Notes under the pieces: generated by a model
Databases searched by the model: none
Seen by the model: only the letters and a program-made list of their open reading frames with translations
Told to the model about the DNA's origin: nothing
Virus record (IMG/VR): IMGVR_UViG_3300020472_000012
Coordinates: 1-64,000 of that record
DNA from: a virus
DNA length: 64,000 bases
Strand: one strand, 5' to 3'
Shown: positions 1 through 64,000 of the stretch, in pieces
Layout: every line of letters starts with the position of its first letter
Numbering within the stretch: the first letter of the stretch is position 1
Translations under genes and position numbers: made by a program

Positions 1-1227
1 AATGTAGGAAACTTTACAACAGAAGATATTAAGAACACTGCATTATCCACAACATACTTTACTGCAACTAAAGTAGAGTCACATCATCCATTTGAAGAAG
101 AATCAAAAGAACAAATACAAACAGAACCAGTTACAGCAGTAAGTGGTAAGACTGCAACAGAAGGTGGTGCAGAACCTTATGACCATACTACAAAAGTAAA
201 TGGATTTATAGGTAGAGGTAGAGTATTAGTATCAGATGACCCTAACGAGTTCTATGATACTGTAATGAAGAACAGAACTAAGAATGTTATCGTAACTCAA
301 ACCTTTGCAAGTGCAGCCACTAAGAGTGGTAAGACACTTGCAGTAGTACCTTCTAGTAAAGAAGATGCAAACCAACAAGGAACAAGAACAGACCAATCAA
401 CTAGCACAACAACAACTCTAAGAATAACTGGTGGTTTAGATTGGGGTGATACAATACAAAGTGCAAATAGAGATTCAATATTAAATAACCTTGCAACAGG
501 AAGAGAAGAACATAAAGTCCCATCCGACTCAAAACGATTTAACTCAGTTAGAATTTCAGACCATGAACAAATGATAACCGAAGATGGTTATAGCTTGGTT
601 GCAGAACCAGACCATGGCCACCTAATGTTAGAACCTAAGTGGGAAGAATATAATGCAAGTGAGTCTGTTGATGGAAAACAATATTACACTAATGGTTGGG
701 TAGTAGACCCAACAGAAGAATTAATACTAGAGGATGGTGGTAAGTTACGAATAGAAGATGCAACAGATATAGAAGTTGCAGTTAAGTTAGTAACTGAAAG
801 AACACCAAACTTTGGAAGTATGTACCTCAGACACGAAGAACATGGAAGAATAATCTTCGAGGACGATAGTGCATTAGTACAAGAGATGTCATCAAGTATA
901 CTACCAACTCCTACAATAGCAGTTGGGCCAACACTGGGTGATTTATCTAGAATAGGATTCTCTTCAAATTTAGAATTTGAAGAAAGAATGAGACAAGAGT
1001 CTGGAAATGCAGCCAACAATGTTGATGGCATTAATACTGAAACTGGTAAAGGGGATTTAATCCTTATGGAAAGTGGATGGAAACTCTTGGAAGAGGCACC
1101 TTACGAGGGTGTCAAAATTAGTGATATAAGTACCTTATATGGAAATATACCTATATCAGAATTGGAAATTAATGAAGGTATGAGAACAAGTCTAACTTTT
1201 TCTGCATCAGTTCAATCTGGTGCATAA
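1..1227 (+). CDS. Baseplate wedge protein, gp7-like, 5'-truncated
   Basis: Frame +1 is open from base 1 to the stop at 1227; recurrent (L/I)xxEDG motifs; lies directly upstream of gp8. The call rests mostly on synteny. Confidence 0.55.
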   Translation, partial: NVGNFTTEDIKNTALSTTYFTATKVESHHPFEEESKEQIQTEPVTAVSGKTATEGGAEPYDHTTKVNGFIGRGRVLVSDDPNEFYDTVMKNRTKNVIVTQTFASAATKSGKTLAVVPSSKEDANQQGTRTDQSTSTTTTLRITGGLDWGDTIQSANRDSILNNLATGREEHKVPSDSKRFNSVRISDHEQMITEDGYSLVAEPDHGHLMLEPKWEEYNASESVDGKQYYTNGWVVDPTEELILEDGGKLRIEDATDIEVAVKLVTERTPNFGSMYLRHEEHGRIIFEDDSALVQEMSSSILPTPTIAVGPTLGDLSRIGFSSNLEFEERMRQESGNAANNVDGINTETGKGDLILMESGWKLLEEAPYEGVKISDISTLYGNIPISELEINEGMRTSLTFSASVQSGA

Positions 1228-1233
1228 AAGTTG

Positions 1234-1241
1234 TATAAATA
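1234..1241 (+). promoter_or_regulatory. T4-type late promoter TATAAATA
   Basis: Exact gp55 consensus, intergenic, upstream of gp8. Confidence 0.8.
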
Positions 1242-1290
1242 CCTATTAGAATTAAAATTTATTTTTTTAAATTAGAGGAAGGAAAAACAA

Positions 1291-2715
1291 ATGGCAGCGA
1301 TTATAACAGAAAAATTTCGTTTGCACAATGCAAAGCAATTTCGTGAAGTTGCTTCGGAGTCTGGAAATGACATGTATATGTTTATTGGTAGACCATCTGC
1401 ATGGTCAGACGATTCTAATCCACCAACTCCAGTAGACTCTTTGAATGATGAGTATGATGCATACGCAAACATGGTTGCACTTAAGAAAGTTGCAACTACC
1501 GATGTTAGTCATGCCATTGTAAGACGAGACTGGACAAGTGGAACAGCATACGATGAGTATAGACATAATTATACATCATCTAACACATCAACAAGTGGTG
1601 CATCCACACTATGGGCATCTACATTCTATGTAATGACAGATGACTATAATGTGTACAAATGTATAGAAAATAACAGTGGTGCAAACTCTACTGTTAAACC
1701 AGACCACACTACTGTTGCAATACCAACCGAATCAGATGGATACAGATGGAAATATATGTATTCAATATCTGCATCAGATGTAATCAAATTCGTAACATCA
1801 GACTTTATACCAGTGAAGACACTTGGTGCAAAGGCTGCTGTAGAAGGTGATTCTGGTGCATTAGGAACTGCAGCTTCTGACGATGCATCTGCACAATGGG
1901 ATGTAGAGAATGGTGCAGTCGATGGAACAATCGAACACATAAGAGTAACAGCAGCTGGTTCTGGATATACAGATGGGACTTATACAGTTGCAATCGCAGG
2001 GGATGGTTCTTCTGCAACTGCAAGTATAACAGTATCATCTGGAGCAGTTTCTGCTGCAACAATAAATGCAGTAGGTTCTGGATATTCAGTAGCAAGTATT
2101 AACAGTGCAACTTTTATTGCATCTGCTGGTTCTGGTTCAAGTGCAACATTTGATGTTATAGTAAGTCCTAAGGCTGGACATGGTTCAGACCCAGTTGAAG
2201 AACTAGGTGGAAACTATGTTATCGTTAACTCAAGACTTGAGTATGCAGAAGGAAGTGGAGACTTCCCAACTGATAACGATTTCAGACAAATAGGTCTTAT
2301 TGTAAACCCAACAAACATAGGAACAAACACTCTATCAAGTGCAAGTACATTAAGTGCATCTAATGCCTTTACAATGGCATCTGGTGCTACTATGCCTTCA
2401 GTTGACGACAAGATTAGAAATGCTTCTACTCTTGCAGCTGGAAGTGCAGCGGGTATCGTAGTTTCAGTAGACTCAACAAATAGGATTATATCTTATTTAC
2501 CATCTACTGGTTCAACAGACCTATACAATGACTTTAGTGCAAGTGATACAGTATACAGTTCTGCTGGGGCAAGTCTTGGTACAATCTCTAGTGTAGATTC
2601 AACAAGACCAGAAGTTCAAAGAAACTCTGGTGACATTGTATACATAGAAAATAGGGGTGCAGTTGCAAGGGCAGCTGACCAGATTGAGGACATCAAATTA
2701 ATCATAGAAATGTAG
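1291..2715 (+). CDS. gp8: Baseplate wedge subunit gp8
   Basis: MAAIITEKFR start; YMFIGRP..W; FYVMTDDYNVYKC; DGYRWKYMY; NDFRQIGLI; C-terminal QIEDIKLIIE. Confidence 0.9.
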   Translation: MAAIITEKFRLHNAKQFREVASESGNDMYMFIGRPSAWSDDSNPPTPVDSLNDEYDAYANMVALKKVATTDVSHAIVRRDWTSGTAYDEYRHNYTSSNTSTSGASTLWASTFYVMTDDYNVYKCIENNSGANSTVKPDHTTVAIPTESDGYRWKYMYSISASDVIKFVTSDFIPVKTLGAKAAVEGDSGALGTAASDDASAQWDVENGAVDGTIEHIRVTAAGSGYTDGTYTVAIAGDGSSATASITVSSGAVSAATINAVGSGYSVASINSATFIASAGSGSSATFDVIVSPKAGHGSDPVEELGGNYVIVNSRLEYAEGSGDFPTDNDFRQIGLIVNPTNIGTNTLSSASTLSASNAFTMASGATMPSVDDKIRNASTLAAGSAAGIVVSVDSTNRIISYLPSTGSTDLYNDFSASDTVYSSAGASLGTISSVDSTRPEVQRNSGDIVYIENRGAVARAADQIEDIKLIIEM

Positions 2716-2726
2716 GATAACTAACA

Positions 2727-5700
2727 GTGGCTCAAAAAACAGACCTTAATGTTAGTCCTTATTATGATGATTACTCAGACTCGAAGAATTTTCATCGAGT
2801 TCTGTTTAAACCATCAGTTGCTATACAGGCAAGGGAACTAACACAATTACAATCTATACTGCAAAACCAGATAGAAAGATTTGGTAACCATGTCTTTAAA
2901 GAAGGTTCCATCATCACTGGTGCAAGAACAACTTATGATGATAAGTTCTTTGCAGTAAAGGTTAATGATACCAATCCAAATGGAAGTGGAACTTCTGCAA
3001 CTGAATCATTCAGAGCAGATTCTTTAGATAAAATATTTCAAGGTGAAACAACTGGTGTTGTCGCAAAGGTCGTAGATACTGCTGCCAAAACAACTTCTGA
3101 CCCACTAACACTATTTGTAAAATATCTTAGAACTGGAAACTCTGGTACTACATTCTATAATGAGTTCCAAGACGCAGAAGAAATCTCAAGGGTAACTGCA
3201 AATGCCACAACTGGTGCGTATACATCTGCATCAGACAATAACGAATTTAAAGTATTCTCACAATCTGGATTAACAGATGTTGGTTCAGTTCAAGGTAGTG
3301 CAGTAAGTATTGCCGAAGGTATTATGTATGTTCGTGGTAATTTTGTCAAGGTAAGTAAACAAACTTTAATCCTAGAAAAATATTCTGCAACTCCATCCTA
3401 CAAGATAGGTCTTGATGTTGCAGAAACTTTAGTAGATTCTACAACAGACACATCTCTATTAGATAATGCAATTGGTTCAACAAACGAAAATGCTCCAGGC
3501 GCAAATAGACTTAAAATCTCTTTAACTCTTGCAAAGAAATCTTTAACTGCAACAGACTCAACTAACTTCATCGAATTGATGAGAGTTGAAAGTGGTATCG
3601 TAACAAGAAAAACTCAAATGACAGAGTATGCAAGATTACAAGACTCTCTTGCACAAAGAACTTATGATGAGAGTGGAGATTATACACTACAACCTTTCTC
3701 AGTTTCATTTAGAGAACATTACAATAACCAAACAAACAATGGTGTCTATACTTCAACAGACACACCAGCTGGGGACAAAACTAAATTTATTGCAAATGTA
3801 TCTGCTGGTAGAGCATATGTTAAAGGATACCAAGTTAATAAATCATCTCAATCGTTTGTCACGATGGAGAAAGCAAGAACTACAACTAGTAAGACTGGTG
3901 TAGAATCACCATTTAGACTTGGGAACTATATTAAAGTAGAAAACATATATGGTTCACCAGACATTGGTAATGAAGGTACATTAAATCCAATGAATGAAGT
4001 TCTATTATATGATACTGCATTAGGTTCCTCTGGTTCTGGAAATGGTGGTGGTAGTGCAATTGGTGTTGCAAGAGTAAGAAACATAGACAACGATGGTACA
4101 AACTATAGAGTGTATCTATTTGATGTCCAGATGTTTACTAAGATTACAAACACTGGTACAGTAGCAATGACTGGTGGTTCAAAGATTAAAGGTAGTTCAA
4201 GTAATGCAATAGGAACTGTATACAGTCAATCTGGTGCAGTAGTAAATTGTATTAATGTTACTGGTATATTCCAAGCAGGCGAAACAATAACAAGACAAGA
4301 TGACGATACTGTTACTGCAACAGTTAGTTCAACAACTCCAAGAAACTATGGAATTCAAAGAGCAAGAAGGATACACCAGACTGCTGGTAATCAAGGTGGT
4401 GCAGCTGCATTTGGTGGAGACTTAGTATTAGATGATAATGTTTCTTTAACTGGAACTGCATATATTGGTTCTGGTGACTTGGATGCATTAGTTGGTGTTG
4501 GTTCTAAATTCACAAACCAATTAGAAGAAGGTGATAAGATTTTATTCCCAGATGGTCAAACTGGAATTGTAAACTCAATCGCATCAGACACTTCTGTTGA
4601 TTTAATAGCAGATTTAACTGGTGCAATCGATGGTACAATTATAAGAACTAGACCAAAATTATACAAAGCAAATCAAACAGTCGCAATCTCTGGACTACCA
4701 CAAGATGGTGTTAGTAACTGTACTACAACTAGAGAAGTAGTAAGACGACAAGAATTAGTTACAGTTGCATTAAGTAAACTTACACTTAGTGCTAATAGTG
4801 GTGAAACATTCACTGCAAAATCTGTAGAAGATTATGTAATAACAAACGAAAGTACAGGTGCAGCGGTTTCTGTTAGTGGAACAACATTCTCTGGTGCTGG
4901 AACAGCAGGATTAGAAATTAGTAGTGGGGATGTACCAGCAAATGGTGTTGTATGTAAAGTTTTATATACAGTAGTAAGAGACAACTCTGTAGCTGCAGAA
5001 GCATCAAAGACTATGAAGAGGTCTACAGTAATAAATGTTAATACTGCTGACCCATCAATTTTTGGAGTAGGATATCAACATGAAGATATCTCTTTAGGTA
5101 TAACAGATTTATATAAAGTTAGAGCCATTTATCAAGGTGGTTCTACTGTGTCGTATGGTTCAACTCCAACCGAATCGACAGAAGCACTTCCACCTTCATT
5201 CGTATATACTGCTGATGAAGGAAATAGTGTTGCAATTTCAGCTGCTGGTACTCTACTAAAAGGTAGTGTTTCTGGTGCAAGGGGTATATTAATAGAGAAC
5301 TCTGGTGGTACATGTTTCTTCTATTACATAACAGATAAAAGATTTCAAAACTCAGAAGAAATTACAACAGAATTAGGTTCTGTTGGAACATGTGCAAGTG
5401 TTAGCGTAGGTTCACCAGAAATTAAAAATAGTTTCTTGGTCGATGATGGTCAAAGAGATGGATACTATGGACTTGCAAGTATAACTAGAAAACAACAAGC
5501 ACCAACACCAGCAGGTAAATTAAAGATTATTGTAGATTACTTTGTACATGGTTCTGGTAACTACTTTACTCATAACTCATATACAGATATGATGTTTGAA
5601 GAAATGCCACATTATGTTGCAGATAGGATTGACCCTAATGCAACCTTTGAACCAAGTGGTACATTCAGATTAAGAGATGCGATAGATTATCGTCCAGCAG

Positions 5701-8700
5701 TTGCACCAGAATTAACAGTATCTAGTACAACATACAATGCTGTAATAAGTGCAACACCACCAGATGTATCTGCATTAGGTAATTATCCTTTTGCATATTC
5801 AACACAAGCTTTTGATAGTAATTCTCATACTGTTGACCTTCATAAGATTGGTGCAAACACTACATCTAATGTAACTAATTATCTAAACAGAATAGATAAA
5901 CTTTTCTTAACTTCTAAAGGTGACTTTATAGTTTCTAAAGGTGAGTCTTCACTATCACCAGTTGCTGGTGGAGATATAGAAGATGCAATTCTTATTGGAA
6001 CAGTAAAGGTTCCAGCATACACAACACATGCAGAAGATGTATCAATTAAATTAAAGAATCATAGACGATACACAATGAGAGACATTGATAGAATGTCTAA
6101 GAGATTGACAATTCTTGAAAATGCAGTAACAATGTCTATGTTAGAAACAACAACTGATAGTTTACAAGTTTTAGATGATGATGGGTTTGATAAGTTTAAA
6201 TCTGGATTCATCGTAGATGCATTTAAAGGTCATGGTGTAGGTAACCCTTCACATCCAGACTATCAAGTTGCAATGGATGGTGCAATGAATGTTGCAAGAC
6301 CTACTGGATATACTGGAAGAGTTGGTCTATCTGCTAATACAGATAAATCAAACAACATTGTAATTAATGATAACATTGTAACATTGAAGTTTGATTCTGA
6401 TGCATACTTACAAGCAACGAAAGCTTCAACCGAATTAAATGTAAACCCATTCAACATTGCAAACTTTATTGGTAACTTAACCTTAGACCCAGATGCAGAC
6501 CAATGGCATGAAAGAACACAAATGCCAGATGTACTTACAAGTGTAGAAGGTAACTTTGATGCAATACAATCTGTTGCTGGTGTGGGTACAGTTTGGAATG
6601 AGTGGCAAGAAACATCACAAGGTATCCCAGTAACAACTCAAGAAAATGTTGTAACTGAAACCTTACCTATAGAAACTATAGAAAGAATGGGTGGCCGAAG
6701 AGGTGGTAGATGGATTGGTGCAATGCAAGCCAACCAGTTAATGGGATTTGAATTCCAACCTCGTTGGGATGAAGTAGATTTCATTGCAGACAACTGGGAT
6801 GGTGGTGGAAGAATTAACAGTGAAGGTACTGCTGGAACAAGAACAACATTTACAGAAGTAACAACTACACCAACAGTAGAACAAAGAAGTGGTGTAAACA
6901 CACAGGTAGTTGAAGATATAGTAAGAACAGAAAACGATAGACTTGTCAAGATGGATGCAATTCCATTTATGAGAAGTATCGATATAACTGCAACAGCAGA
7001 AAACATGAAACCTAACAGTAAGTTAAATGTATACTTTGATGGTATTCAAGTTAATTCACATTGTACTCCATCATCTGCAACTTATGGTGTTGGTGGTGCA
7101 ACTACAAAAGGAACACAAATTTTAACAGATGGACATGGTAAGGCATTATTTACATTTACTATTCCAAATAACAATCCATCATTTTCAACTGGTACAAGAA
7201 CAATGAAGTTGACAAATGGTGATTCAATCGATGATGCAAAATCTACAACTAGTGCAGAAGCAACATTCTCTGCACAAGGTACAATGGCACATCATCAGAA
7301 GACAATTACTTCAACAAGAAATGCAAGAGTAGTACAAACAAATGTTAGTGAAAGTAGAGATGGTTCAATTGTTACAAGAGAAGACAAACAAACAGAAACA
7401 GAAGGTACTCCAAGAATTGTTTGGATTGACCCACTTGCACAATCCTTCTTGGTTACTGATACAAATGAAGAAGGTGCATTCTTAACTAAGATTGACCTAT
7501 ACTTCTCTACAAGAGATGCAACTGGTTTACCAGTAACAGTAGATATAAGAGAGATGGAAAATGGATATCCAACACAAAGGATAGTTCCAGGCTCAGAAGT
7601 AACTAAGAATCCAGATGATGTTAATGTTAGTTCTAATGGACAAACTGCAACAACATTTGAATTTAAACATCCGATATATGTTCAACCAAATAGAGAATAC
7701 TGTTTTGTTGTAACATCTAACTCTAACGAATACTTCTGTTGGACTGGAGAGATGGGTAAATTTGATGTTCATACACAAGAGCCTATTGACGAACAACCAT
7801 ATGCTGGTGTTCTATTCAAATCTCAAAACAGTTCTACATGGACTACCGAAGAGATGCAAGACCTTAAGTTTACAATTTATCGTGCTAAGTTTGTATCAAG
7901 TGGTACTTTAACATTAGAAAACGACAAGTATGGTGAAGTGGCTGGATATGCTCAGTCATCAACAACTGCAACAGATGAGTCAACATCACAAAACTTCTCA
8001 TCTCAAAAATGGATAAACCCAATAGAAATTGTTGGAACTGGAGATGGAAACAGATTTAAGGTTCACCAATTATCACATGGAATGTATGATACAGATTCTA
8101 ATGTTGTAATAGAAGGTGTGGTTGGTGATAGACTATCTGGATTAACAAATATCTCAATCGCAGCTTATGGTGGTAGTGCAGCTGGAAGTGCAGCGACTTA
8201 CACTGATGTTGCACTTTATGATAATTCAACTGGTGCTGTAACTGATGCAACTGCTGATATCGTAGTAGATTCAGCCTCAACTGCAAGTTCAATAAAAATT
8301 AATAATCCAGGCTCTGGTTTAGCAACAACACAAACATTAAAACTTTTAAACAGTGGAGCTGGTGGTTCTGGTACAGCAACATTCTGTACAATAACAATTA
8401 ATGCAGTAGGTGACACTTTAGGTGGTATGCCTATCAGTCTAATCAATGCAACTCATAATAATGTTGCAAGTTTCGATATGGATTCATACGAAATAGATGT
8501 TAACCTTAACTTAGGTAGTGGAAGTGATAAGTCAGTTGGTGGTATAGAGAATATTAGAGGTGGTGGAACTGCTGTAAGAGCAAGTAGAAACTTATACTAC
8601 GATAGTATACATCCATCTATAAGACACTTAACTATGCCTAAGACTTCAATTACACCGAATCTATTTACTACAAGTGCAAACTCTCCACAAGGAAGTGCAA

Positions 8701-15809: not shown

Positions 15810-18800
15810 ATGCCAACAAAAGCAAGATATCTTGCAGACTTATTAAATGCATCTGGGGAGTTAGACTCTACTGGTGCAGTTGAGAGTATTCAAGATAATA
15901 TATCAACACTATTCAGTGCTGGAACTCATACAGGTATATCATTTACCTATGATGATTCCAATGCAACATTCAGTGCAGCCGTTAATCAAGACGCAGTTGC
16001 AGCTGGATTTTATCACAAAATCGCAGTAACAGTTTCAAGTAGCAAGTATTACTTGGATGGAACACAACAAGCAACAGCGATACTGTCTCCCTCAGTATTG
16101 TATAGATTTGACTTGTCTGATTCATCTAACGCTAATCATCCTCTAAGATTCTCTACTACTTCTGATGGAACACATAACTCTGGTGCAGAAATATCAGCAG
16201 GGTATACAACATATTCTAAACAAGGAACGCCAGGTTCATCTGGTGCATACACAGAAGTATGTTTTGAACAAGACCAAACAAACCCACTTTATTACTATTG
16301 TTCTGCACATAGTGGTATGGGTGGTACTGCATTGTTAGGTATTATGCCTAACTCAGATTTTTTAACAGAAGGTTCAACTAACCTTTACTATACAGACGAG
16401 AAAGTTCAAGATGTGGTTGGTGCTCAAATAGCAACCAATGGTTCACATACTGGATTAACTGCCACCTATGATGATGCTGGTGATGGTGCAATAGATATAG
16501 CACTATCCAGTGAATATGTACAAGACTTAGTAGGTGCAATGGTATCATCTAATACTGAGAGCGGTATTAGTGTAACATACGAAGATGGAGATGGTACTTT
16601 AGACTTCAATGTTAATGACCCAACAATTACCCTTGCTGGTGATGTTACTGGTTCTGCAACAATGACAGATTTAGGTAATGTATCTATTACCACAACCATT
16701 GCAGCTGATAGTATTGCATTAGGAACAGACACAACTGGAAACTATGTACAAACAATAACTGGAACTACAAACGAAATAGAAATATCTGGTTCTGGTTCAG
16801 AAAGTGCAGATGTAACAATAGGTTTACCGAATGATGTAACGATTGGAAATGATTTAACAGTTACAGGAGACTTAACTGTCTCTGGAACTACAACTACTGT
16901 ATCGTCATCAACAGTTGCAATTGCAGATGTAAACATGAAGGTTGCAAAAGATAACGCTGCAAATGCAGTAGACTTTGGAATATATGGTGCATACAATGAT
17001 GGTTCTGGAAAATTTGCTGGACTTAACTGGGATGCATCTGAGTCAGATAAGTTTAGACTCTTTCATGGAACTGCAACAGAACCAACTACTGTAGTAAATA
17101 CTGGTGCAAGTGGTTGGACAAAAGGAACATTAATTGCAGACTTAGAAGGTAACGCTTCTACTGCAACTGCATTAGAAACTTCAAGAACACTTGCATTAGC
17201 AGGTGATGTTACTGGTTCTGCATCTTTTGATGGAAGTGGAAATGCAACAATAACTGCAACTATATCTGCTGACTCTGTTGCATTAGGAACAGACACAACA
17301 GGAAATTATGTTGCAGATGTCGCTGGTGGAACTGGTATTACAGTTACACATAGTGCTGGTGAAGCATCAACACCTAGTGTTGCAGCCGACCTTGCAACAA
17401 CAAGTGCAGTTGGTGTTGCATCATTTAACTCTACAGACTTTACAGTAACTTCTGGTAATGTTGAGTTGGTTGATGAAGCAATTCAAGATGTGGCAGGTGC
17501 TCAATTAGCAACTAATGGTTCACATACTGGTATCACTGCAACATATGATGATGCTGGTGATGGGGCAATTGACCTTGCACTAATAACAGAAAATGTAGAA
17601 GATATAACTGGTGCTCAATTAGCAACCAATGGTTCCCATACAGGAATAACTGCAACTTACGATGATGCTGGAGATGGTGCAATAGACCTTGCATTAGTAA
17701 CAGAGAATGTACAAGACATTGCTGGAGCTCAACTTGCAACTAATGGTTCACATACTGGTATCTCATTTACATATGATGATGCTGGTGATGGTGCTATAGA
17801 TGCAGTAGTAAGTGGTGCAGCTGCAACTATCATATCAGATTTTGGTGAAGCAGTTGCCGACACAGTAGGGGCAATGTTCAGTGGAAACACAGAAACAAAC
17901 ATAACAGCAACATATGTTGATGATGATAATACTATTGACTTAGCCGTTTCTGGTAATATGTCTAGTATCGTATCAGATTATCAAGAAGCAATCGAAGATG
18001 TTGTAGGTGCAATGGTAGGTTCTAATACCGAAAGTGGTATTGCTGTAACATACGATGACACAAATGGTAAGTTAGACTTTGATGTATCAGACCCAACGAT
18101 TACTCTTGCTGGAGATTTAGGTGGTTCTGCAACAATAACTAACTTAGGAAATGCAACCTTAACTGCAACAATACAAGCTGGTTCTGTAGAAAACAGTATG
18201 TTAGCAGGTTCAATTGCAAACAGTAATCTTGCAAATTCAACAATAACAGTTTCCGATGGTTCTAACACAACTGCAACTGCATTGGGTGGAACAATAACAT
18301 TTGCTGGTACTTCAAACGAAGTAGATGTTGCAGAGAGTTCTGGAACAATTACATATGGACTACCATCTGATGTAACAATATCAAACGACTTAACAGTTAG
18401 TGGAGACTTAACAGTTACAGGGTCAACAACTCAAACTGGTGCTGTAGTAACAGACAATAACTTTACAGGGTTAACAAATGCAAACTCTGGAAACTCAACA
18501 GACTTTGGTTTCTATGGTAAGTATGTAGAATCTTCAACCACAAAATATGCTGGTTTATTCTACGATGCATCAACTGATAATACATTCAGACTCTTTAGAG
18601 ATACAGAAACAGTACCTTCAACAACAGTAAATACTTCTGCATCTGGTTATGGTGTTGCAACTCTAGTTGCAAATATTACAGGTGATGTTAGTGGTTCATC
18701 TGGAAGTACAACAGGTAACGCTGCTACTGCAACAGCACTTGCAAGTGCAAGAACTATTAGTGGTGTAAGTTTTGATGGTACTGCAAACATAACTTTAGAT

Positions 18801-25699: not shown

Positions 25700-25951
25700 A
25701 TGGACAACGAAATGACACACTTAATCTGGAACTTTGTATTGACTGCCGGAGCAGCGGGAGTTGGTTGGTGGGTCATTAATATGCACAACGAATTGAAACG
25801 AGTAGAGATTTTGTTGAACAGGACTAGGGAAGAAGTAGCGAGAGACTACATTCAGAAAGATGATTTGGAAAGAGCAATGAGACCAATTGTAGAATCCATA
25901 GAGAAAATTGACTCTAAATTAGACGATTTTCTAATCTCAAATCAAAAATAA
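25700..25951 (+). CDS. Small membrane-anchored coiled-coil protein (possibly holin-like)
   Basis: N-terminal TM segment, LNRTREEVARDY, coiled coil. Confidence 0.55.
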   Translation: MDNEMTHLIWNFVLTAGAAGVGWWVINMHNELKRVEILLNRTREEVARDYIQKDDLERAMRPIVESIEKIDSKLDDFLISNQK

Positions 25952-38102: not shown

Positions 38103-39410
38103 ATGTTTATGTCAGAATCTTTACAAGAAAAGTGGCAGCCGGTATTAGAACATCCTGATTTGCCTAAAATCGATGATTCATACAAAAGAGCAGTCACTTC
38201 TGTAGTTCTTGAAAACCAAGAAAGAGCCTTAAACGAAGACAGAGGAATGATATCTGAAGCATCACCAGTTAACGCTGCTGTTGGTTCCGATGGGTCTGGT
38301 ATCTCAAACTGGGATCCAATCCTAATTTCTTTGGTTCGTAGGTCTCTACCTAACTTGGTTGCATACGACATTTGTGGTGTCCAACCTATGACTGGCCCAA
38401 CTGGGTTAGTATTTGCAATGAAAGCTCGTTATAACGATAACACTTCAAGGTTAGCAATGACCGAGGCGTTATTTGACGAAGCAGATTCAGATTTCGCTGG
38501 TGCGGGAACACAAGCTGGAACAGACCCATTTGGGGATGCAGCCACTTATGCTTCTGGTACTGGTATGACTACTGCAGCAGGGGAGGCATTGGGTGACAGT
38601 GCTTCAAATCCTTTTGCTAGTATGGCTTTCACAATTGAGAAAGCAACTGTAACTGCAAAAACTAGAGCTCTCAAAGCAGAATACACTATTGAACTTGCAC
38701 AAGACCTTAAAGCAATTCATGGTCTTGACGCAGAAACAGAACTTGCAAACATATTGTCTGCTGAAATCCTTGCGGAAATCAACAGAGAAGTTGTAAGAAC
38801 TGTTAATGTTCAAGCTAAAACTGGTGCTCAGTCTGGTACTGCTAATGCTGGTCGATTTGACCTAGATGTTGATTCATCTGGTCGTTGGTCAGTTGAGAAA
38901 TTTAAAGGCATGCTCTTCCATGTAGAAAGAGAAGCTAACACAATTGCAAGAGAATCAAGACGAGGAAAGGGTAACTTTATCCTTTGTTCTTCTGATGTAG
39001 CATCTGCACTAGCTATGGCTGGTGTACTTGACTACGCTCCTGCTCTCTCAACTAACCTAAATGTTGACGATGCTGGTAATACTTTTGCTGGTGTTCTTAA
39101 TGGTAAGTATAAAGTCTATATTGACCCATACTACACATTAGACCCAGTAAGTGGTCACAGTAACGAAGGTTACATGACTGTTGGATATAGAGGTTCCAAT
39201 CCTTATGATGCTGGTATATTCTACTGCCCATATGTTCCATTACAAATGGTTCGTGCGGTTGGTGAAAATACTTTCCAACCAAAAATTGGTTTCAAAACTC
39301 GATATGGAATGATTTCAAATCCATTCGTAGGTTCGTCTCCAAGTGATGGTCTTGCATCAGCAGGAAGTAACTTCTACTACAGAAAGGTCGAAGTAGAAAA
39401 TATTCTATAA
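38103..39410 (+). CDS. gp23: Major capsid protein gp23
   Basis: GVQPMTGPTGLVFA; ELAQDLKAIHGLDAE; FQPKIGFKTRYG. Confidence 0.98.
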   Translation: MFMSESLQEKWQPVLEHPDLPKIDDSYKRAVTSVVLENQERALNEDRGMISEASPVNAAVGSDGSGISNWDPILISLVRRSLPNLVAYDICGVQPMTGPTGLVFAMKARYNDNTSRLAMTEALFDEADSDFAGAGTQAGTDPFGDAATYASGTGMTTAAGEALGDSASNPFASMAFTIEKATVTAKTRALKAEYTIELAQDLKAIHGLDAETELANILSAEILAEINREVVRTVNVQAKTGAQSGTANAGRFDLDVDSSGRWSVEKFKGMLFHVEREANTIARESRRGKGNFILCSSDVASALAMAGVLDYAPALSTNLNVDDAGNTFAGVLNGKYKVYIDPYYTLDPVSGHSNEGYMTVGYRGSNPYDAGIFYCPYVPLQMVRAVGENTFQPKIGFKTRYGMISNPFVGSSPSDGLASAGSNFYYRKVEVENIL

Positions 39411-52385: not shown

Positions 52386-52391
52386 AGCAGT

Positions 52392-54746: not shown

Positions 54747-54748
54747 AG

Positions 54749-54778: not shown

Positions 54779-54908
54779 AGCTACATGATAAAGAGATTAA
54801 ACATAACACCACTGATAGAGATTCCGATAGGTTTCAGAATTTATCAATCTTTGGTTTTGGGATTAATAACAATCCCAGTAATATTTGGAATTTTATAGGA
54901 GAGAAAAT

Positions 54909-56075: not shown

Positions 56076-56286
56076 AAAGAACTCTCCTAAAGGAAAGGGG
56101 CAAGGGTTAAACCTTGCCCTAATTTCCGAAATGAACATAAAACAATTGATTGTATATGTTTATGGTGAAGATAAAGGATGGAAGATTACATCGAATGGTG
56201 CAACTTCCCATTATGGAGTTGAAGTATCTAAGGATAGATTACTCAACATGGCAGTAACAAAACTTAACAATCCTTACGCAGAATGA
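56059..56286 (+). CDS. Hypothetical protein
   Basis: ATG at 56059 with GAGG RBS. Confidence 0.55.
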   Translation: MTSQYKKNSPKGKGQGLNLALISEMNIKQLIVYVYGEDKGWKITSNGATSHYGVEVSKDRLLNMAVTKLNNPYAE

Positions 56287-56378
56287 AATGGATAACAAAA
56301 TTGTTTTTAGACCCAGTGTGGTTATATGTATTTTTCCTTGCAACAGTTTTAGTAAAGGATATAAGGAATAACTTTTGA
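56283..56378 (+). CDS. 31-aa membrane microprotein (not in ORF track)
   Basis: MKWITKLFLDPVWLYVFFLATVLVKDIRNNF; ATGA overlap with the upstream gene. Confidence 0.45.
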   Translation: MKWITKLFLDPVWLYVFFLATVLVKDIRNNF

Positions 56379-56626
56379 ATACAATGACAGAATTTTCAGA
56401 TGTGGTACAAAACCAAATAGAACTCTTAAAAGCAGAAGAGTGGGGCAAACAAGTTAAAATGATTATTGGTGAAGGTGGATATGTAGTCTACCATTTCAAT
56501 AATGGAGATAAACAGATTATAGAATCCAAGACAGGTAAATCCACTTGGGAATATGCTAGTGAAGAGAAAAAACTAAGCATGTTGGAAAGGTTTCAGCGTT
56601 GGAGAGCAGACAACAATGATTCCTAG
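56375..56626 (+). CDS. Hypothetical protein
   Basis: Coding-like; start at 56375 (TTG) or 56384 (ATG). Confidence 0.6.
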   Translation: MNTMTEFSDVVQNQIELLKAEEWGKQVKMIIGEGGYVVYHFNNGDKQIIESKTGKSTWEYASEEKKLSMLERFQRWRADNNDS

Positions 56627-56654
56627 TTATTTAATAATAGGGGCGTTAAGCTCG

Positions 56655-56737
56655 GGCAGGGACAGGGAACTGACCATATACAAAGAGGACACTTATAATA
56701 CTAGCTCTTGTAGTATTGACGAGTTCCCATCCCGCCA
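56655..56737 (+). ncRNA. Candidate structured RNA (long interrupted hairpin ending in CCA)
   Basis: GGCAGGGACAGGGAACT pairs with AGTTCCCATCCCGCC; inner TACAAAGAG/CTCTTGTA; GC-rich intergenic island. Confidence 0.45.
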
Positions 56738-56758
56738 GATTTTATTTATGAATATACC

Positions 56759-58009: not shown

Positions 58010-58011
58010 AC

Positions 58012-58155
58012 ATGGCACAACCACAATCTCAACAAGACCTATTGAAGTTTCAAGGTAAGAGAATTAAAGACCAATCAGAATCAATTGCAGAACAAAGCAA
58101 GAAGATTGCTGAATGGATTACACAACAACAAGACCCAAGACATAACCAAGAGTGA
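58012..58155 (+). CDS. 47-aa Gln-rich protein (not in ORF track)
   Basis: AAGGAG RBS; MAQPQSQQDLLKFQGKR...DPRHNQE. Confidence 0.6.
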   Translation: MAQPQSQQDLLKFQGKRIKDQSESIAEQSKKIAEWITQQQDPRHNQE

Positions 58156-58368
58156 ATGAATAGAAAACAACACAAAGCACTTAAAGAAACATTCGTTACA
58201 GTCTTTACTGGATTGGTCATTAATTGGCCAATCAGTTTAGGATTGTTATACTTATGTTGGGATGTAATTGGACTTAACACTCTTGAGACTTCTATCGTTA
58301 TGACATTAGGTATGACTTTAGTTGCTCTCTTGAGGGTCTTTACTATTAGGATGTATTACGAAGAATGA
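58156..58368 (+). CDS. Small two-TM membrane protein
   Basis: Two hydrophobic segments. Confidence 0.65.
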   Translation: MNRKQHKALKETFVTVFTGLVINWPISLGLLYLCWDVIGLNTLETSIVMTLGMTLVALLRVFTIRMYYEE

Positions 58369-58691
58369 ATAAACAATTAGAATTAGACTTCCAGTTAAGT
58401 AAACCTATTCCTAGAGGTCAAATAGACCAACAGGAATATGCAAGGGTATTGAATTCTGTAGGAGTCTTTGTGGACTATGTTCATGGGACTTATGAAGAAG
58501 TAGAAAATTACTGTGACATCAACAATTATTGGGTAGATAGGTATCTAGACCATGTTGACCCTATGACAGTACAAAGACATTTTAAATATATTGGTTCTGG
58601 GCAGAATCCATGTTCAGTTGCTAGACCAATTTACCAGTACGATAAGGATGGTAAGTTTATTGGTTACACTGAATTTAAAGAGAAATGGTAA
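58365..58691 (+). CDS. Hypothetical protein
   Basis: ATGA coupling; coding-like. Confidence 0.6.
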   Translation: MNKQLELDFQLSKPIPRGQIDQQEYARVLNSVGVFVDYVHGTYEEVENYCDINNYWVDRYLDHVDPMTVQRHFKYIGSGQNPCSVARPIYQYDKDGKFIGYTEFKEKW

Positions 58692-58692
58692 C

Positions 58693-58720
58693 TTGACAAA
58701 TCCAGAATCTATGAGATAAT
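58693..58720 (+). promoter_or_regulatory. Sigma70-like promoter, 16-bp spacer
   Basis: TTGACA-N16-GATAAT; ATG 7 nt downstream. Confidence 0.65.
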
Positions 58721-58726
58721 AATTAT

Positions 58727-59023
58727 ATGAGTGATATAAAGTATAAATTTAACGAACCCAAACTATTGAAAGAAATAGCAGATTATGTAACTACTACCTA
58801 TGAACAACATTATGGTGGTGGTAAATATCAGGCAACTGATATGATAATTGACTCTGGACATGGTGAGGGTTTTTCAGTAGGTAATATTATGAAGTATGCA
58901 ATGAGATATGGTAAGAAAGGTGGTAAGAATCGTCAAGACTTGCTTAAGATTGTACATTATTCTCTTATTGCTTTATATAATCATGATGAAACATCAAGTA
59001 GTGAGGTAAAAAATGAATCTTAG
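58727..59023 (+). CDS. DUF3310-like protein
   Basis: TYEQHY...GF..GNIMKYA.RYGKK...DLLKI.HY. Confidence 0.8.
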   Translation: MSDIKYKFNEPKLLKEIADYVTTTYEQHYGGGKYQATDMIIDSGHGEGFSVGNIMKYAMRYGKKGGKNRQDLLKIVHYSLIALYNHDETSSSEVKNES

Positions 59024-59681
59024 TGATGATACTCTTGAAGTCCTAGACAATTTTTCAGATATTAACTCTGGAATTACTGTTAGGGTGGGGCAAGAGTTAA
59101 AAACAATTTCCCCAATGAAAAACATTTTTGGTACAGCCAAAATATCTGAGAACTTTGATAAAGAGTTTTCGATATATGACTTATCAGAATTTCTTGCAAC
59201 TTTATCGTTGTTCGATGCACCAACTTATGAGTTTGGTGAGAAAGAAGTTGTAGTTAGTGAAGGTGGTAATAAAGCAAGGTATGTGTATGCAGACCCTTCA
59301 ATGATTATTACTCCAGAGAAAGATATAACAATGCCTAATCCAGAGATTGTATTTGAATTAGATAGTAATACTCTAAGTAAAGTACAAAAGGCTGCAAATG
59401 TTCTATCGTTGCCAGACTTAGTTTTGGAATCAGATGGTACAATTGTTCTTCTTGCAGTAAGAGATAGGAAACTAACTGACTCAAGTAATGAGTTTGGTGA
59501 GAAGATTGCAGATGGTGATGGTAGTGTCTATTCAATGAACTTCAAGATAGAGAACTTGAAAGTATTGGATGATGATTATACAGTGTATGTATCATCAAAA
59601 GGTATTTCACACTTTGTTTCAAAGAATAAAGGTGTAGAATATTTCATTGCATTAGAACCAGATTCAAAATATGGGGCATAA
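59013..59681 (+). CDS. gp45: Sliding clamp gp45
   Basis: L.NFS.IN; F.IYDL.EFL; YFIALEPDS. Confidence 0.93.
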   Translation: MNLSDDTLEVLDNFSDINSGITVRVGQELKTISPMKNIFGTAKISENFDKEFSIYDLSEFLATLSLFDAPTYEFGEKEVVVSEGGNKARYVYADPSMIITPEKDITMPNPEIVFELDSNTLSKVQKAANVLSLPDLVLESDGTIVLLAVRDRKLTDSSNEFGEKIADGDGSVYSMNFKIENLKVLDDDYTVYVSSKGISHFVSKNKGVEYFIALEPDSKYGA

Positions 59682-59685
59682 CTCA

Positions 59686-59693
59686 TATAAATA
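59686..59693 (+). promoter_or_regulatory. Late promoter TATAAATA
   Basis: Exact consensus between gp45 and gp44. Confidence 0.6.
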
Positions 59694-59809
59694 ATGAATG
59701 TAGATACTAAGACATTGGTATTAAGGGCTGCAAGACCAACTCTCTCATCTAGGGGTTTTGTTCAGTTTGATAAGGTGGGTTATCAGACTTCTTTAATTCG
59801 AGATATATT

Positions 59810-60742
59810 ATGACAGAAGAATTTTTATGGGTAGAGAAGTATCGTCCAAAAACTATTGAGGATTGTGTACTTCCATCACAAATCAAACAAACCTTTTTTG
59901 ACTTAAAAGGTGAAATTCCAAATATGATTCTTAGTGGTTCTGCTGGAACTGGTAAGACTACTGTTGCACGAGCATTGTGTGAACAAGTTGGTGCAGATTG
60001 GATTATCATTAATGGTTCAGAAGAGAGTGGTATTGATGTTCTTAGAACAAAGATTAAAAACTTTGCTTCTACTGTGTCGTTGGGTGGTGGAAACAAAGTT
60101 GTTATTCTCGATGAAGCAGATTATCTAAATCCACAATCAACCCAACCAGCATTGAGAGGATTCATCGAAGAGTTCCATAAGAACTGTAGATTTATCCTAA
60201 CATGCAACTTCAAGAACAGAATAATACAACCTTTGCATTCAAGATGCACTGTAATAGACTTTAGAATACCAGCTAATGAAAGACCAAGACTCGCATCTGT
60301 ATTCATGGCAAGATTAATGACAATCTTAACTGAGGAAGGTGTGAAGTGGAATACAGAAGTATTACAAGAACTGGTAATGAAATACTTTCCAGACTTTAGA
60401 AGAACTATAAATGAACTACAGAGATATGGAACTAGTGGTGAGATTGATGTAGGTATCTTAACTAATGTCCAAGAAGAAAGTTTAAAAGAACTAATGTCTC
60501 ATCTTAAAACCAAAAGGTTTACTGATATGAGACGATGGGTTGCAATGAATGTTGATAACGACCCAGTAATGCTATATAGAAAGTTGTATGATAGTTTATA
60601 TGAAACTGTCGATAAATCAACAATCCCACAAGCAGTTTTAATTATTGCAGATTATAGTTATAAGTCTGCATTTGTAGCCGACCAAGAAATTAACTTGGTT
60701 GCATGTTTAACCGAACTAATGATGGAGTGTAAATTTTCATGA
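59810..60742 (+). CDS. gp44: Clamp loader large subunit gp44
   Basis: LWVEKYRP; GSAGTGKTT; LDEAD; SRC; FPDFRR. Confidence 0.96.
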   Translation: MTEEFLWVEKYRPKTIEDCVLPSQIKQTFFDLKGEIPNMILSGSAGTGKTTVARALCEQVGADWIIINGSEESGIDVLRTKIKNFASTVSLGGGNKVVILDEADYLNPQSTQPALRGFIEEFHKNCRFILTCNFKNRIIQPLHSRCTVIDFRIPANERPRLASVFMARLMTILTEEGVKWNTEVLQELVMKYFPDFRRTINELQRYGTSGEIDVGILTNVQEESLKELMSHLKTKRFTDMRRWVAMNVDNDPVMLYRKLYDSLYETVDKSTIPQAVLIIADYSYKSAFVADQEINLVACLTELMMECKFS

Positions 60743-60906
60743 AACAATTTAAAGAATGGATAAACAGGGACAACAACAAATTTACTTTTGTTGGTGCCTT
60801 CTGTCTATTGGGTATGACAGTTACATGGGGTGATGGTATGGCTGAGTTTGCAACATTTTCAGCAATATTTGTTTTTTGTGTAATTAGAAAAGTGCTAAAT
60901 ATATAA
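60739..60906 (+). CDS. 55-aa two-TM protein (not in ORF track)
   Basis: MKQFKEWINRDNNKFTFVGAFCLLG...FSAIFVFCVIRKVLNI; ATGA overlap with gp44. Confidence 0.55.
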   Translation: MKQFKEWINRDNNKFTFVGAFCLLGMTVTWGDGMAEFATFSAIFVFCVIRKVLNI

Positions 60907-60907
60907 T

Positions 60908-61102
60908 ATGGAATACGAACTAGTACATTATATACTTTTAGGTCTCCTTGTTGGACTCGCATATTGGCATGGTCATAAGACTGGAGTCAATGCTGGTGCA
61001 GAAGGAATGTATGAACATTTATATAATAGTGGGACAAGAAAAGAAGATAAGGTTATTGTTGCATTAGAATATGAAGATAGACATTATAAAAAGGATTTTT
61101 AA
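60908..61102 (+). CDS. Small protein with N-terminal TM segment
   Basis: YILLGLLVGLAYW.G...G. Confidence 0.6.
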   Translation: MEYELVHYILLGLLVGLAYWHGHKTGVNAGAEGMYEHLYNSGTRKEDKVIVALEYEDRHYKKDF

Positions 61103-61866
61103 TGGAACAACCAACACTATCAAAAGATTTATTTAGAATCAAACTCAATGTTGGGTTAGACTATAGATTTATTGCTGATTGGTGTATAGAACATGAACAT
61201 CATCCATACTTCTCACATGATGAAGATGGGGTTGCAACACCAAATCAATTTAGTGATAATCTAAGGTCATATGTTAGAGGTTCCAAAGAAGGTATAGATT
61301 TTGGTGAAGATGGTGTAGCAGATTTAGAAGAGAAGACTAAAGACATAGAATATTATCATACCTATAATCCATTTTCATTTGGATTAAGACCATTTGCAGA
61401 TTTATACTGGAAGTTAAATGAGTTCTTCTATTCAGACCCACAAGTTAACGAGGCTGGTGAACCATATTACATTCATGGATGGTTTAATGTATATACAAAG
61501 AAAGATGAAGACAATAAAGGGTATGACCACATCCCTTGGCACAAACATATGGAAGTTTATCATCCACATATCTATCATGGATTTTATTGTGCAAATGTAC
61601 AACCTTCTCAAACTTGGTACAGAGAGGGCCCAGAATCTACAGAGGAATCGTGGTTAAAACATACAGACTATGATGATATGATAATATATTCACCATCATC
61701 ATTTGAACATGCATCAACGCCATGGCTTGAAGACAAACCTAGAGTGACGATTGCATTTGACATTATTCCAGAGAGTGTTTATCTCTCAGAACATAATATT
61801 GGTAACTATCAATGGGGATTAGAACCAAGACAATATCAATCAATACCATTTCCTAAATGCATATGA
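61102..61866 (+). CDS. 2OG-Fe(II) oxygenase-like protein (HxH type; paralogue of 30585-31220)
   Basis: HGWFNV; WHKH; YHG; EH; PRVTIAFDIIP; IPF. Confidence 0.75.
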   Translation: MEQPTLSKDLFRIKLNVGLDYRFIADWCIEHEHHPYFSHDEDGVATPNQFSDNLRSYVRGSKEGIDFGEDGVADLEEKTKDIEYYHTYNPFSFGLRPFADLYWKLNEFFYSDPQVNEAGEPYYIHGWFNVYTKKDEDNKGYDHIPWHKHMEVYHPHIYHGFYCANVQPSQTWYREGPESTEESWLKHTDYDDMIIYSPSSFEHASTPWLEDKPRVTIAFDIIPESVYLSEHNIGNYQWGLEPRQYQSIPFPKCI

Positions 61867-63128
61867 ACTATTTTCAATACACATTAAATGATTTAGAACA
61901 CAATTCTGCAAAGAAAGAATTCAATTACATTACCTTCTTTGCTGGTGGTGGTGGAAGTTCTTGTGCATATAAACTTGCTGGTGGTGATGTAAGATACATG
62001 AATGAGTTTCAACAGATTCATGTAGATACTTACCTTGCAAACTTTCCTAATACAGTTCATGAATGTAAAGATATAAAACAAGTCACTGGTAAAGATATTT
62101 TAGAAATGACAGGATTACAAAAAGGTGAACTTGATATTATGGATGGTTCTCCACCATGTCCACCATTCTCTATGGCTGGAAAGAAAAGAGAAGGTTGGGG
62201 TAAAGAGAAAGTTGCATATGGAATGAAACAACAGAACATAGAAGACCTTACTTGGGAAATGATTAGAATCGCAGAGGAAGTCATGCCCAAAGTTATAGTA
62301 TGTGAAAATGTGAAAGGTCTTTCTATGGACTATGCAAGAGACCATCTTATTAAGATGATAACAGATTTTGAAAAACTTGGGTATTCAGTTACATGGAAAA
62401 TCATGAAGGGTCATGAACATGGAGTACCACAAAAAAGAGAAAGAGTATTCTTAGTTGGTGTTCGTGATGATGTATTAGATGCAATAGGAATGCCATTTAT
62501 GTGTTTAAGTGGATTGTTTCCAGAGACAACTCCAGAAAGAATATCGATTGGAGAAGCAATTGATGACTTAATAGATGATGAAGAGAATAAGAAGGATGCA
62601 GAATATCTAGTTAATTCAATGAATAATTCATCAAAGTCACATTGGATTAATGGATTTGAGACACATCCAGACCCAGACTATGCACACTGTGGCCCATGTA
62701 AAGGGTTAGATGGTGTTGCAGATATGATGGGAAATCGTCCTTACATATCAATAGGTGATGATATTGTTGGGCCTTGGTTTGAAGAACAAATAGAAAATGG
62801 ACACTTAAAAGAAGAGGATGCAAAACATTCTTATTATATGTCAAGAATTGTTCCAAAACATCTTCCAGCACATTCACTAACTGAACAAGGATGTCAAGAA
62901 AAATTTATGGGTGGTAATCACTTCCACTATAGTGGTAAGAGGATATACACACCAAAAGAAATGGTCAGACTTATGACATTACCAAATGATTATAAGATGA
63001 CTGGGGACTATAACGATAAAGGTGCAAGAATAGGTTTAATGGTTGCACCACTATGTTTGTACTACTTAGTAGAACAAATAAAGGAACAGGTATTAAAGCC
63101 ATGGAATTCACTGCACCAAAAGACTTAG
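61857..63128 (+). CDS. DNA cytosine-C5 methyltransferase
   Basis: Motif I FAGGGG; IV GSPPC; VI ENVKG; VIII PQKRER; IX RLMTLP; X IGLMV.P. Confidence 0.93.
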   Translation: MHMNYFQYTLNDLEHNSAKKEFNYITFFAGGGGSSCAYKLAGGDVRYMNEFQQIHVDTYLANFPNTVHECKDIKQVTGKDILEMTGLQKGELDIMDGSPPCPPFSMAGKKREGWGKEKVAYGMKQQNIEDLTWEMIRIAEEVMPKVIVCENVKGLSMDYARDHLIKMITDFEKLGYSVTWKIMKGHEHGVPQKRERVFLVGVRDDVLDAIGMPFMCLSGLFPETTPERISIGEAIDDLIDDEENKKDAEYLVNSMNNSSKSHWINGFETHPDPDYAHCGPCKGLDGVADMMGNRPYISIGDDIVGPWFEEQIENGHLKEEDAKHSYYMSRIVPKHLPAHSLTEQGCQEKFMGGNHFHYSGKRIYTPKEMVRLMTLPNDYKMTGDYNDKGARIGLMVAPLCLYYLVEQIKEQVLKPWNSLHQKT

Positions 63129-64000
63129 GTTTTGACGAAACCTTTGAACGATTTAATGGGAAGTTCCTAGATGAAACTTCTTATGATACTGTTGTATCTT
63201 CTATTGGAGTAGAAGAAGATATTATCAAAATCTACAAACCAACTGGTTCATTGTTTGATAAACCATTACTTGCATGTATAGTAAAGAATACCTATCAAGG
63301 TGACACTTACCATCAAGTTAAAGACACTTTGTATTCTATAGATGATACTTCTACCATGAGAGCAAACGCTGCCGGCCCTATCGACCACGAAGAAATGAAA
63401 GCAAAAGGATTGATAGAAGGTAAAGATTATGTTCTAAGAACACCAAATTCATATTATCCATTAAAGAAGAATGGTGAATTCAATCGTATTGCAGAAGCAA
63501 ATGCAATTCATTCTGTCTTTGCTGGATATAAGAGAGGTAGATTTACTGGTATGATAGGATTATCAAACTGGTGTGAAAAGAAATCTAATATAGATAAATG
63601 GAATACAATGAAAAAGATTGCAGTTGTTAACGAACAAGCACTTAAGAAAGGTTGTCCAGATATCTGGAAACTACAAAGAACATATGCAGATGAATGTATA
63701 GAAGAGAAGTATCATTTAGGTGGTGCTCCAATTACTACATTATCTGCAAACAAATATACCAGTGAAGGGACTGCAAAGATGTCTGCACATATTGATGGTA
63801 AAGACCTAGAGTTTGGTATGACTACAATGTGTGTATTCAGATTAGGTAACTTTGGTGGTGCATATCTAACATTCCCAAGATATGGAATTGCAATTGAGGC
63901 TGATGATGGGGATGTATTGATTGCAGATTCAAACGAATTACATGGAGTCACCAAGATAGAAGGTGATGGAATAAGATTATCGTGTGTTGCATACTGTTCA
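63101..64000 (+). CDS. TET/JBP-family 2OG-Fe(II) dioxygenase, 3'-truncated (missing from ORF track)
   Basis: Open for 300 codons from ATG 63101: TTLSAN...SAHIDGKD..G...GGAYLTFPRY...GDVLIAD...LHGVT...RLSCVAY. Confidence 0.88.
   Translation, partial: MEFTAPKDLGFDETFERFNGKFLDETSYDTVVSSIGVEEDIIKIYKPTGSLFDKPLLACIVKNTYQGDTYHQVKDTLYSIDDTSTMRANAAGPIDHEEMKAKGLIEGKDYVLRTPNSYYPLKKNGEFNRIAEANAIHSVFAGYKRGRFTGMIGLSNWCEKKSNIDKWNTMKKIAVVNEQALKKGCPDIWKLQRTYADECIEEKYHLGGAPITTLSANKYTSEGTAKMSAHIDGKDLEFGMTTMCVFRLGNFGGAYLTFPRYGIAIEADDGDVLIADSNELHGVTKIEGDGIRLSCVAYCS

Follow-up and report, generated by a model that had tools for sequence, protein, structure and literature searches.

What GpC-limited, post-replicative cytosine hypermodification does in phages is a standing question. 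We approached it through 64,000 nucleotides of viral DNA (the window), positions 1 to 64,000 of the 114,373-bp virus record IMGVR_UViG_3300020472_000012, at the end of which lie predicted genes for a C5 cytosine DNA methyltransferase (MTase) and a TET dioxygenase. In this genome about 15 short motifs of the kind recognized by nucleases are nearly eliminated, and the few survivors almost always overlap a GpC dinucleotide. The complete record (the contig) has 36% G+C and a CheckV completeness of about 63%, and its plus strand carries nearly all genes. The phage is a marine T4-like myovirus whose portal protein is 54 to 55% identical to the portals of Pelagibacter phage Mosig and Methylophilales phage Melnitz. 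Near-identical sequence is present, as assembled contigs, in 20 public marine runs (24 listed) from at least six studies.

Expected counts were taken from a null model in which synonymous codons were shuffled within each gene, preserving the proteins and the codon usage of each gene (300 shuffles for the window). A motif was scored as overlapping GpC when a G precedes its leading C or a C follows its trailing G.

CCWGG and CCGG sites survive only where they overlap GpC

An earlier note on the window had claimed that Pro-Gly is written only with CCWGG or CCGG sites that overlap a GpC, using the rare codon GGC after Pro or the rare Thr codon ACG before it. It had also stated that all five CCGG sites are GCCGG, that Gly-Pro uses GGC or GGG and never creates GGWCC, and that GATC occurs once, with Asp before a C-starting codon otherwise being GAC. 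Our counts bore out each of these statements. Every one of the 24 CCWGG sites in the window (span 3495 to 54967) is GCCWGG or CCWGGC. They start at 3495, 7587, 8307, 13528, 16230, 19865, 20618, 20624, 22785, 22930, 25287, 26699, 29385, 29697, 31344, 32049, 32922, 33526, 34911, 40528, 40630, 45230, 49197, and 54963. All 24 are in-frame Pro-Gly codon pairs, because CCN-GGN must contain CCWGG or CCGG. The five CCGG sites, at 25746, 36842, 38139, 42262, and 63372 (span 25746 to 63375), are all GCCGG.

Codon choice at these pairs is strongly skewed. GGC makes up 4% of all Gly codons and yet is used in 19 of the 25 Pro-Gly pairs; the remaining six come after a G-ending codon, including ACG at 16230, 19865, and 49197. 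Gly-Pro, as GGN-CCN, necessarily holds GGWCC or GGSCC, and Gly is written GGC or GGG in all 19 such pairs. Before a C-starting codon, Asp appears as GAC in 133 cases and as GAT in one.

We then compared these counts with the codon-shuffled null, split by GpC overlap as the earlier note had suggested. CCWGG without overlap was found 0 times against 26.6 ± 3.4 expected (lowest shuffle, 18), CCGG without overlap 0 times against 19.6, and GGWCC 0 times against 26.4. CCWGG with one-sided overlap was found 18 times against 7.1, and with two-sided overlap six times against 0.7, a dose effect in which the enrichment is strongest when both edges carry a GpC. Sites with overlap exceed expectation and are not simply spared; sites have been converted as well as filtered.

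The whole contig behaves in the same way. GpC overlap was found in 35 of 35 CCWGG and seven of seven CCGG sites; with an overlap fraction of about 0.30 in the null, the probability of the former is about 1e-19. CCWGG and CCGG without overlap are both absent, against 38 and 31 expected, respectively. GGWCC, for which GpC overlap is impossible, is likewise absent (50 expected), and GCCWGG, counted on both strands together, occurs 42 times against 17.

This DNA-level constraint has cost the phage amino acid pairs. Pro-Gly dipeptides stand at 0.39 to 0.63 of expectation in the phages that carry both the MTase and the TET gene (MT-TET phages: the contig, the environmental genomes G001 and G002, and Melnitz), compared to 1.14 in Mosig and 1.01 in Synechococcus phage S-B43. 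In this phage over half of the expected Pro-Gly is gone, with about 40% left.

Further purged motifs obey the same rule

The earlier note undercounted the effect. A screen of all k-mers brought out at least 10 further purged motifs, including ACGT, ACGG, CCTCC, CCTGA, CTGAAG, CGWCG, AGTACT, TTCGAA, GGTACC, and GTGCAC. On the contig, all 15 surviving ACGG sites are ACGGC (HCCGT, 0 against 170 expected; GCCGT, 15 against 19), and all five surviving CCTCC sites are GCCTCC (HCCTCC, 0 against 90; GCCTCC, 5 against 8). Seven of the nine CCTGA survivors are GCCTGA (HCCTGA, 2 against 143; GCCTGA, 7 against 14), and six of the seven CTGAAG survivors are GpC flanked. When the depleted 5-mers starting with CC were pooled, they occurred 15 times after A, C, or T, against 563 expected, and 63 times after G, against 69. 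The motifs that cannot overlap a GpC, namely GATC, ACGT, GGWCC, AGTACT, TTCGAA, and GGTACC, have counts of 0 or 1 each. Within the window, GATC is found once (38313 to 38316) against 177 in the null, and ACGT is absent against 108.

On the coding strand, asymmetric motifs are lost in both orientations; the constraint therefore acts on DNA. GGAGG occurs there 4 times against 84.5 expected, and CCTCC once against 13.2. A cause of the GGAGG loss at the level of translation was ruled out, since coding-strand CCTCC is purged equally. Over the whole contig GGAGG survives only as GGAGGC; with GGAGG near-absent, full Shine-Dalgarno cores are essentially unavailable to the phage.

The shielding contexts are consistent with a published methyltransferase specificity

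The base that follows the GpC matters. GCC rescues motifs in all MT-TET genomes, and GCT rescues CTGAAG, whose survivors across three genomes are GpC flanked in 21 of 23 cases. In this contig GCG rescues motifs of the CGGG type, and in Melnitz it rescues nothing. For GCA, GTGCAC was found 0 times against 60 expected in the pooled genomes, and a G before CAGG brought no rescue. It thus seems that GCC, GCT, and GCG shield while GCA does not. The earlier note had proposed that codon choice would reveal the specificity of the MTase, and the footprint does recover a +1 preference, with shielding by GCC, GCT, and GCG.

According to PMC8256090, TET-associated phage C5-MTases write 5-methylcytosine (5mC) at GpC, which the TETs oxidize; clade I enzymes act at GpC[C/T/G] and not at GpCA, and clade II enzymes act at GpC[C/T]. 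The footprint of the contig is consistent with the GpC[C/T/G] specificity, and the contrast between the contig and Melnitz with the difference between clades I and II. Melnitz resembles clade II in having a polymerase upstream. The contig shares with clade I its HSP20 (76865 to 77347) and redoxin (77429 to 78013) neighbors and the fact that the target-recognition region of its MTase contains an insert. By these proxies (neighbors, insert, and footprint), the contig enzyme would fit clade I/A.

TGCA (1130 against 758) and TTGCAA (597 against 340, pooled) are strongly over-represented in the contig, G001, G002, and Melnitz, and not in Mosig.

The GpC rule follows the MTase and TET genes

The GpC rule recurs in every relative with the gene pair and is missing from those we examined without it, Mosig and 45 loci lacking the MTase. 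Both genes are present in Melnitz (MTase 53% and TET 51% identical to those of the contig) and in G001 and G002, two 146-kb environmental genomes with MTases that share 87% and 78% identity with that of the contig. HCCWGGD, that is, CCWGG without GpC overlap, is absent from Melnitz, G001, and G002 against 43, 49, and 65 expected, and GGWCC is absent against 40, 58, and 69. GCCWGG is enriched 2.4- to 3.3-fold across the MT-TET genomes. Of the 144 CCWGG sites in 80 environmental loci that have MTase homologues (868 kb), 139 overlap GpC.

A search of the complete Mosig genome found neither a C5-MTase nor a TET gene. There HCCWGGD (69 against 71 expected) and GGWCC (54 against 55) are at expectation, as is CCTGA with or without overlap. 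The 45 MTase-less loci, in which gp44 abuts gp62, hold 214 CCWGG sites without overlap and 84 with it.

Mosig shows something of a mirror image of its own, with GGSCC at 0 against 14, CASTG at 5 against 64, and GGA or GGT in 46 of 46 Gly-Pro pairs. It also purges GATC, ACGT, CGCG, CGWCG, AGTACT, and TTCGAA, despite the streamlined genome of its SAR11 host.

A predicted modification island lies between gp44 and gp62

The clamp-loader large subunit gp44 (59810 to 60742, plus strand; Pfam AAA and Gp44_lid) forms the left border of a hypervariable island. Between it and gp62 lie four open reading frames (ORFs): a 2-oxoglutarate (2OG) oxygenase-like ORF, the C5-MTase, TET, and a TET-associated glycosyltransferase (TAGT). 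The C5-MTase (61857 to 63128, plus strand; PF00145, E = 5e-49, residues 22 to 409) has the catalytic Pro-Cys motif, visible in the alignment as GSPPCPPFS, and a 22-amino-acid insert in the target-recognition region relative to the Melnitz enzyme. We predict that it is the GpC-specific writer of the shielding mark. The TET/JBP 5mC dioxygenase (63053 to 64102, running past the window end at 64000; plus strand; PF12851, E = 5e-13) and TAGT (64264 to 65058; PF20691) follow. The view of the earlier note that phage C5-MTase/TET pairs act on GpC agrees with this arrangement, in which the MTase at 61857 is followed directly by TET and a glycosyltransferase, and with the biochemistry of the family in PMC8256090.

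The C termini of TET (GSLDSFL), the glycosyltransferase (STITDFMV), an N6/N4 methylase (SSLEDFF), and the DNA polymerase (SSLEEFFG) resemble clamp-binding peptides. Such tails would fit modification at the replication fork.

The first ORF of the island encodes 254 amino acids (61102 to 61866, plus strand). It matches phrog_81 with a weak score, its Atlas neighbors carry PF13759, and it probably belongs to a cyanophage family of 2OG-Fe(II) oxygenases. It comes first in the island of every relative, whether or not the MTase is present, and is 58 to 81% identical in all island variants. We considered this ORF as a nuclease candidate and rejected it, as it is 2OG-Fe(II) oxygenase-like and present in all island variants.

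The gap between gp44 and gp62 (60743 to 64000 in the window and on to 65241 in the contig; loci L008 to L157) is hypervariable, with the 254-amino-acid ORF always first. It is followed by the MTase, TET, and glycosyltransferase in some relatives and, in others, by different glycosyltransferases, a DruA-like protein, an FkbM methyltransferase, or (in L106) an N6/N4 methylase. The L015 island adds a T4-type alpha-glucosyltransferase (PF11440) to the MTase, TET, and glycosyltransferase. The island is empty in more distant kin.

The N6/N4 methylase of the contig is a second DNA methyltransferase, a permuted N6_N4_Mtase (84814 to 85800) ending in SSLEDFF; GANTC is not depleted. Among the contig, G001, G002, the sister contig G003, Melnitz, and Mosig, it is present in this contig only.

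A proposed role for sparse modification as a shield for unavoidable sites

We consider it likely that nuclease sites that the phage cannot avoid are kept only where a glycosylated 5-hydroxymethylcytosine (5hmC) at GpC can mask them. In this model, the phage would mark the GpC cytosines of its DNA once that DNA has been replicated: the C5-MTase would produce 5mC, the adjacent TET would oxidize it to 5hmC, and the adjacent TAGT would add a sugar. Since only GpC cytosines would be covered, the genome would also have to be purged of the roughly 15 motifs recognized by sequence-specific nucleases. A motif would be kept only with a GpC at its edge, where the bulky modified cytosine in or against the site would block recognition. 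Where the protein forces a site, as at Pro-Gly and Gly-Pro, codon choice would be bent to create the GpC. For Pro-Gly this would mean taking the rare GGC for Gly or placing a rare G-ending codon in front of Pro, and for Gly-Pro it would mean spelling Gly as GGC or GGG. The earlier note had held that sites are tolerated only with the phage's own modified GpC cytosine inside them. This part of its inference stood in the form that survivors have a GpC cytosine in or against them, for at least eight motifs and in the MT-TET relatives.

Several observations weigh against this model. Motifs that contain a GpC themselves are still depleted: GCGC occurs once in the window (3499 to 3502), the single copy in the contig, against 17 expected there, GTGCAC is at 0, and TAGCTA and AGCT are at 0.21 and 0.53 of expectation. 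CGWCG and CGCG are not rescued by a GCG context. Shielding is thus not universal, and it requires either selectivity for the +1 base or nucleases that ignore the mark. Four close relatives without MTase or TET in the island keep the footprint; these are fragment records, and the genes may lie elsewhere. MTase-less Mosig has two flank-dependent motifs, CCGCA and CTGGG. In S-B43, for which GC modification has been proven experimentally, only CCGG is purged (2 against 73), and although both survivors are GCCGG, the rescue is negligible (GCCGG, 2 against 23). The footprint is therefore not general to GC-modifying phages. S-B43 is also depleted in GGCC (25 against 72) and AGCT (103 against 276), though both contain the GC modified by its enzyme, CmoX.

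Whose nucleases would impose the purge is a separate matter, on which we lean moderately toward enzymes encoded mainly by hosts. A rival account accepts the footprint and the GpC shielding as real but has the core-purge nucleases encoded by the phages, where they would degrade the DNA of hosts or rival phages. This would be a self/non-self system in which deletion of sites together with GpC hypermodification takes the place of a cognate methylase. We regard it as unlikely, although it has more in its favor than any other alternative. All four MT-TET genomes share the core purge of CCWGG, CCGG, GGWCC, CCTCC, CCTGA, and GTGCAC, which is absent from MTase-less kin, while the purges of ACGT, ACGG, CTGAAG, AGTACT, and TTCGAA vary between lineages; G002, for example, keeps ACGT (412 against 421) and CTGAAG (112 against 105).

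Furthermore, phage-borne nucleases with purging of the phage's own sites exist in this phage group. The closest relative of the contig is G003 (L088), whose gp44, gp62, and regA are 95 to 97% identical at the protein level. In its island a type II restriction enzyme of the Tsp45I family (PF06300, E = 2e-66; L088:12046-12813) replaces MTase and TET. GTSAC is absent from 47.8 kb of G003 (loci L160 to L162) against 34 expected, while the other genomes, which have no such gene, show normal counts. No C5, N6/N4, or D12 methylase that could be its cognate was found in the G003 fragment. A 2023 preprint (10.1101/2023.12.21.572611) also reports many restriction nucleases within such gene clusters. The earlier note took the purged motifs for sites of host restriction, a view that our data do not establish: the core set follows the MT-TET lineage rather than the lineage-specific purges, and G003 carries its own type II enzyme and has purged its site. 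Locus L098 lacks GTWAC in 10.3 kb but has nine GTSAC, the opposite of L088, and may represent a different lineage-specific purge.

The phage-encoded account would need several nucleases to cover five or six distinct specificities, and the shared core could also reflect a shared host ecology. A Pfam scan of about 85 contig ORFs gave no match to a type II restriction enzyme family; what it did pick up was an HNH_3 homing-type endonuclease and, besides, an SNase-like protein. This negative is a weak one, given the completeness of about 63% and the frequency with which profile searches miss restriction enzymes. Searching the whole record with EcoRII-C and Tsp45I profiles gave no match, and as the control genomes were also silent, the result is uninformative. 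The genes common to the MT-TET genomes but absent from Mosig formed a long list, confounded by partial sequence, with no clear candidate.

Alternatively, the phage could be avoiding marking and not cutting. Sites of common host methylases, either orphan enzymes or parts of restriction-modification systems (Dcm-like for CCWGG, HpaII-like for CCGG), would be purged so that progeny DNA is free of plain 5mC and thereby escapes the methyl-dependent (type IV) nucleases of the next host, and a glycosylated GpC next to the site would keep the host methylase off. The core motifs are indeed classic 5mC methylase sites, and the phage's own marks are predicted to be converted past 5mC by TET and the glycosyltransferase, as would be expected if plain 5mC were dangerous. 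Nevertheless, this account leaves the purges of GATC, ACGT, AGTACT, TTCGAA, and the asymmetric motifs unexplained, and the phage TET might oxidize host-made 5mC anyway. We judge it very improbable.

Hardly credible at all is a flank dependence without modification, through longer avoided motifs (e.g., HCCWGGD) or codon pair or dinucleotide bias: although Mosig has such dependence for CCGCA (1 against 22 after A, C, or T; 11 against 8 after G) and similarly for CTGGG, and the shuffled null does not keep dinucleotides across codon borders, at least eight unrelated motifs fall under one rule (G before the leading C or C after the trailing G), the purge is total (0 against 38 to 170 expected) while G-flanked forms are at or above expectation, the rule tracks the presence of MTase and TET across relatives, both strands are equally affected, and the GC dinucleotide is only mildly depleted on the contig (0.91 of expectation).

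Comparison with known systems

The gene trio and its order are those of the clusters of C5-MTase, TET (5mYOX), and glycosyltransferase described by Burke and colleagues, whose modification is post-replicative and limited to GpC (PMC8256090 and 10.1101/2023.12.21.572611). In those studies the enzymes were characterized in E. coli; here, the phage genome itself shows co-evolution of sequence and modification. The 2023 preprint considers GpC-limited marks unlikely to protect broadly and leaves open whether phage or host DNA is the target.

The closest solved homologue of the contig MTase is SpCmoX of Synechococcus phage S-B43 (PDB 8YF3; PMC12783734; E = 3e-70), which is also GC specific and provides a handle for hypermodification. 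CmoX is a carboxymethyltransferase that depends on Arg350, the residue binding the carboxymethyl group of carboxy-S-adenosylmethionine (Cx-SAM), whereas the contig enzyme adjoins TET. In the contig enzyme this residue is Leu (ARIGLMVAP compared to ERVGRMVPP), with the SPPC motif present, and we therefore read it as a methyltransferase and not a carboxymethyltransferase. M.CviPI of chlorella viruses, which we compared by description, is likewise a virus-encoded GpC C5 methyltransferase. It takes any GpC and leaves plain 5mC, whereas here the footprint suggests that GCA is uncovered and the mark would be processed further.

T4, with its glucosyl-hydroxymethylcytosine, shares with this phage the T4-like background and a sugar-decorated 5hmC (predicted here) as an antinuclease mark. 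T4 replaces every cytosine before replication, via the nucleotide pool, and needs no purging; this phage is predicted to modify GpC only, after replication, and to edit its sequence as well.

As in classical avoidance of restriction sites by phages, the purged motifs are short, mostly palindromic, strand symmetric, and far below a codon-preserving null. Unlike in classical avoidance, the flanking base decides here whether a site is purged, forms that overlap a GpC are enriched, and the effect reaches the protein level at Pro-Gly. Term searches within Burke 2021 and the 2023 preprint, the Melnitz paper, and a literature search on site avoidance yielded no description of such conditional, overlap-dependent avoidance.

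Implications

The footprint shows a phage genome shaped around its own mark, which argues that phage DNA is the target of the mark and that the mark shields nuclease sites. It is genomic evidence that sparse modification, itself predicted from the genes, protects phage DNA, and it would make sparse modification and the purging of sites one combined strategy. Melnitz is cultured and has the same footprint, so the model is directly testable. The footprint also offers two tools. The specificity of an uncharacterized phage methyltransferase, including its preference for the +1 base, can be read from codon usage, and the purged motifs of an uncultured phage lineage give a list of the nucleases that it encounters or encodes.

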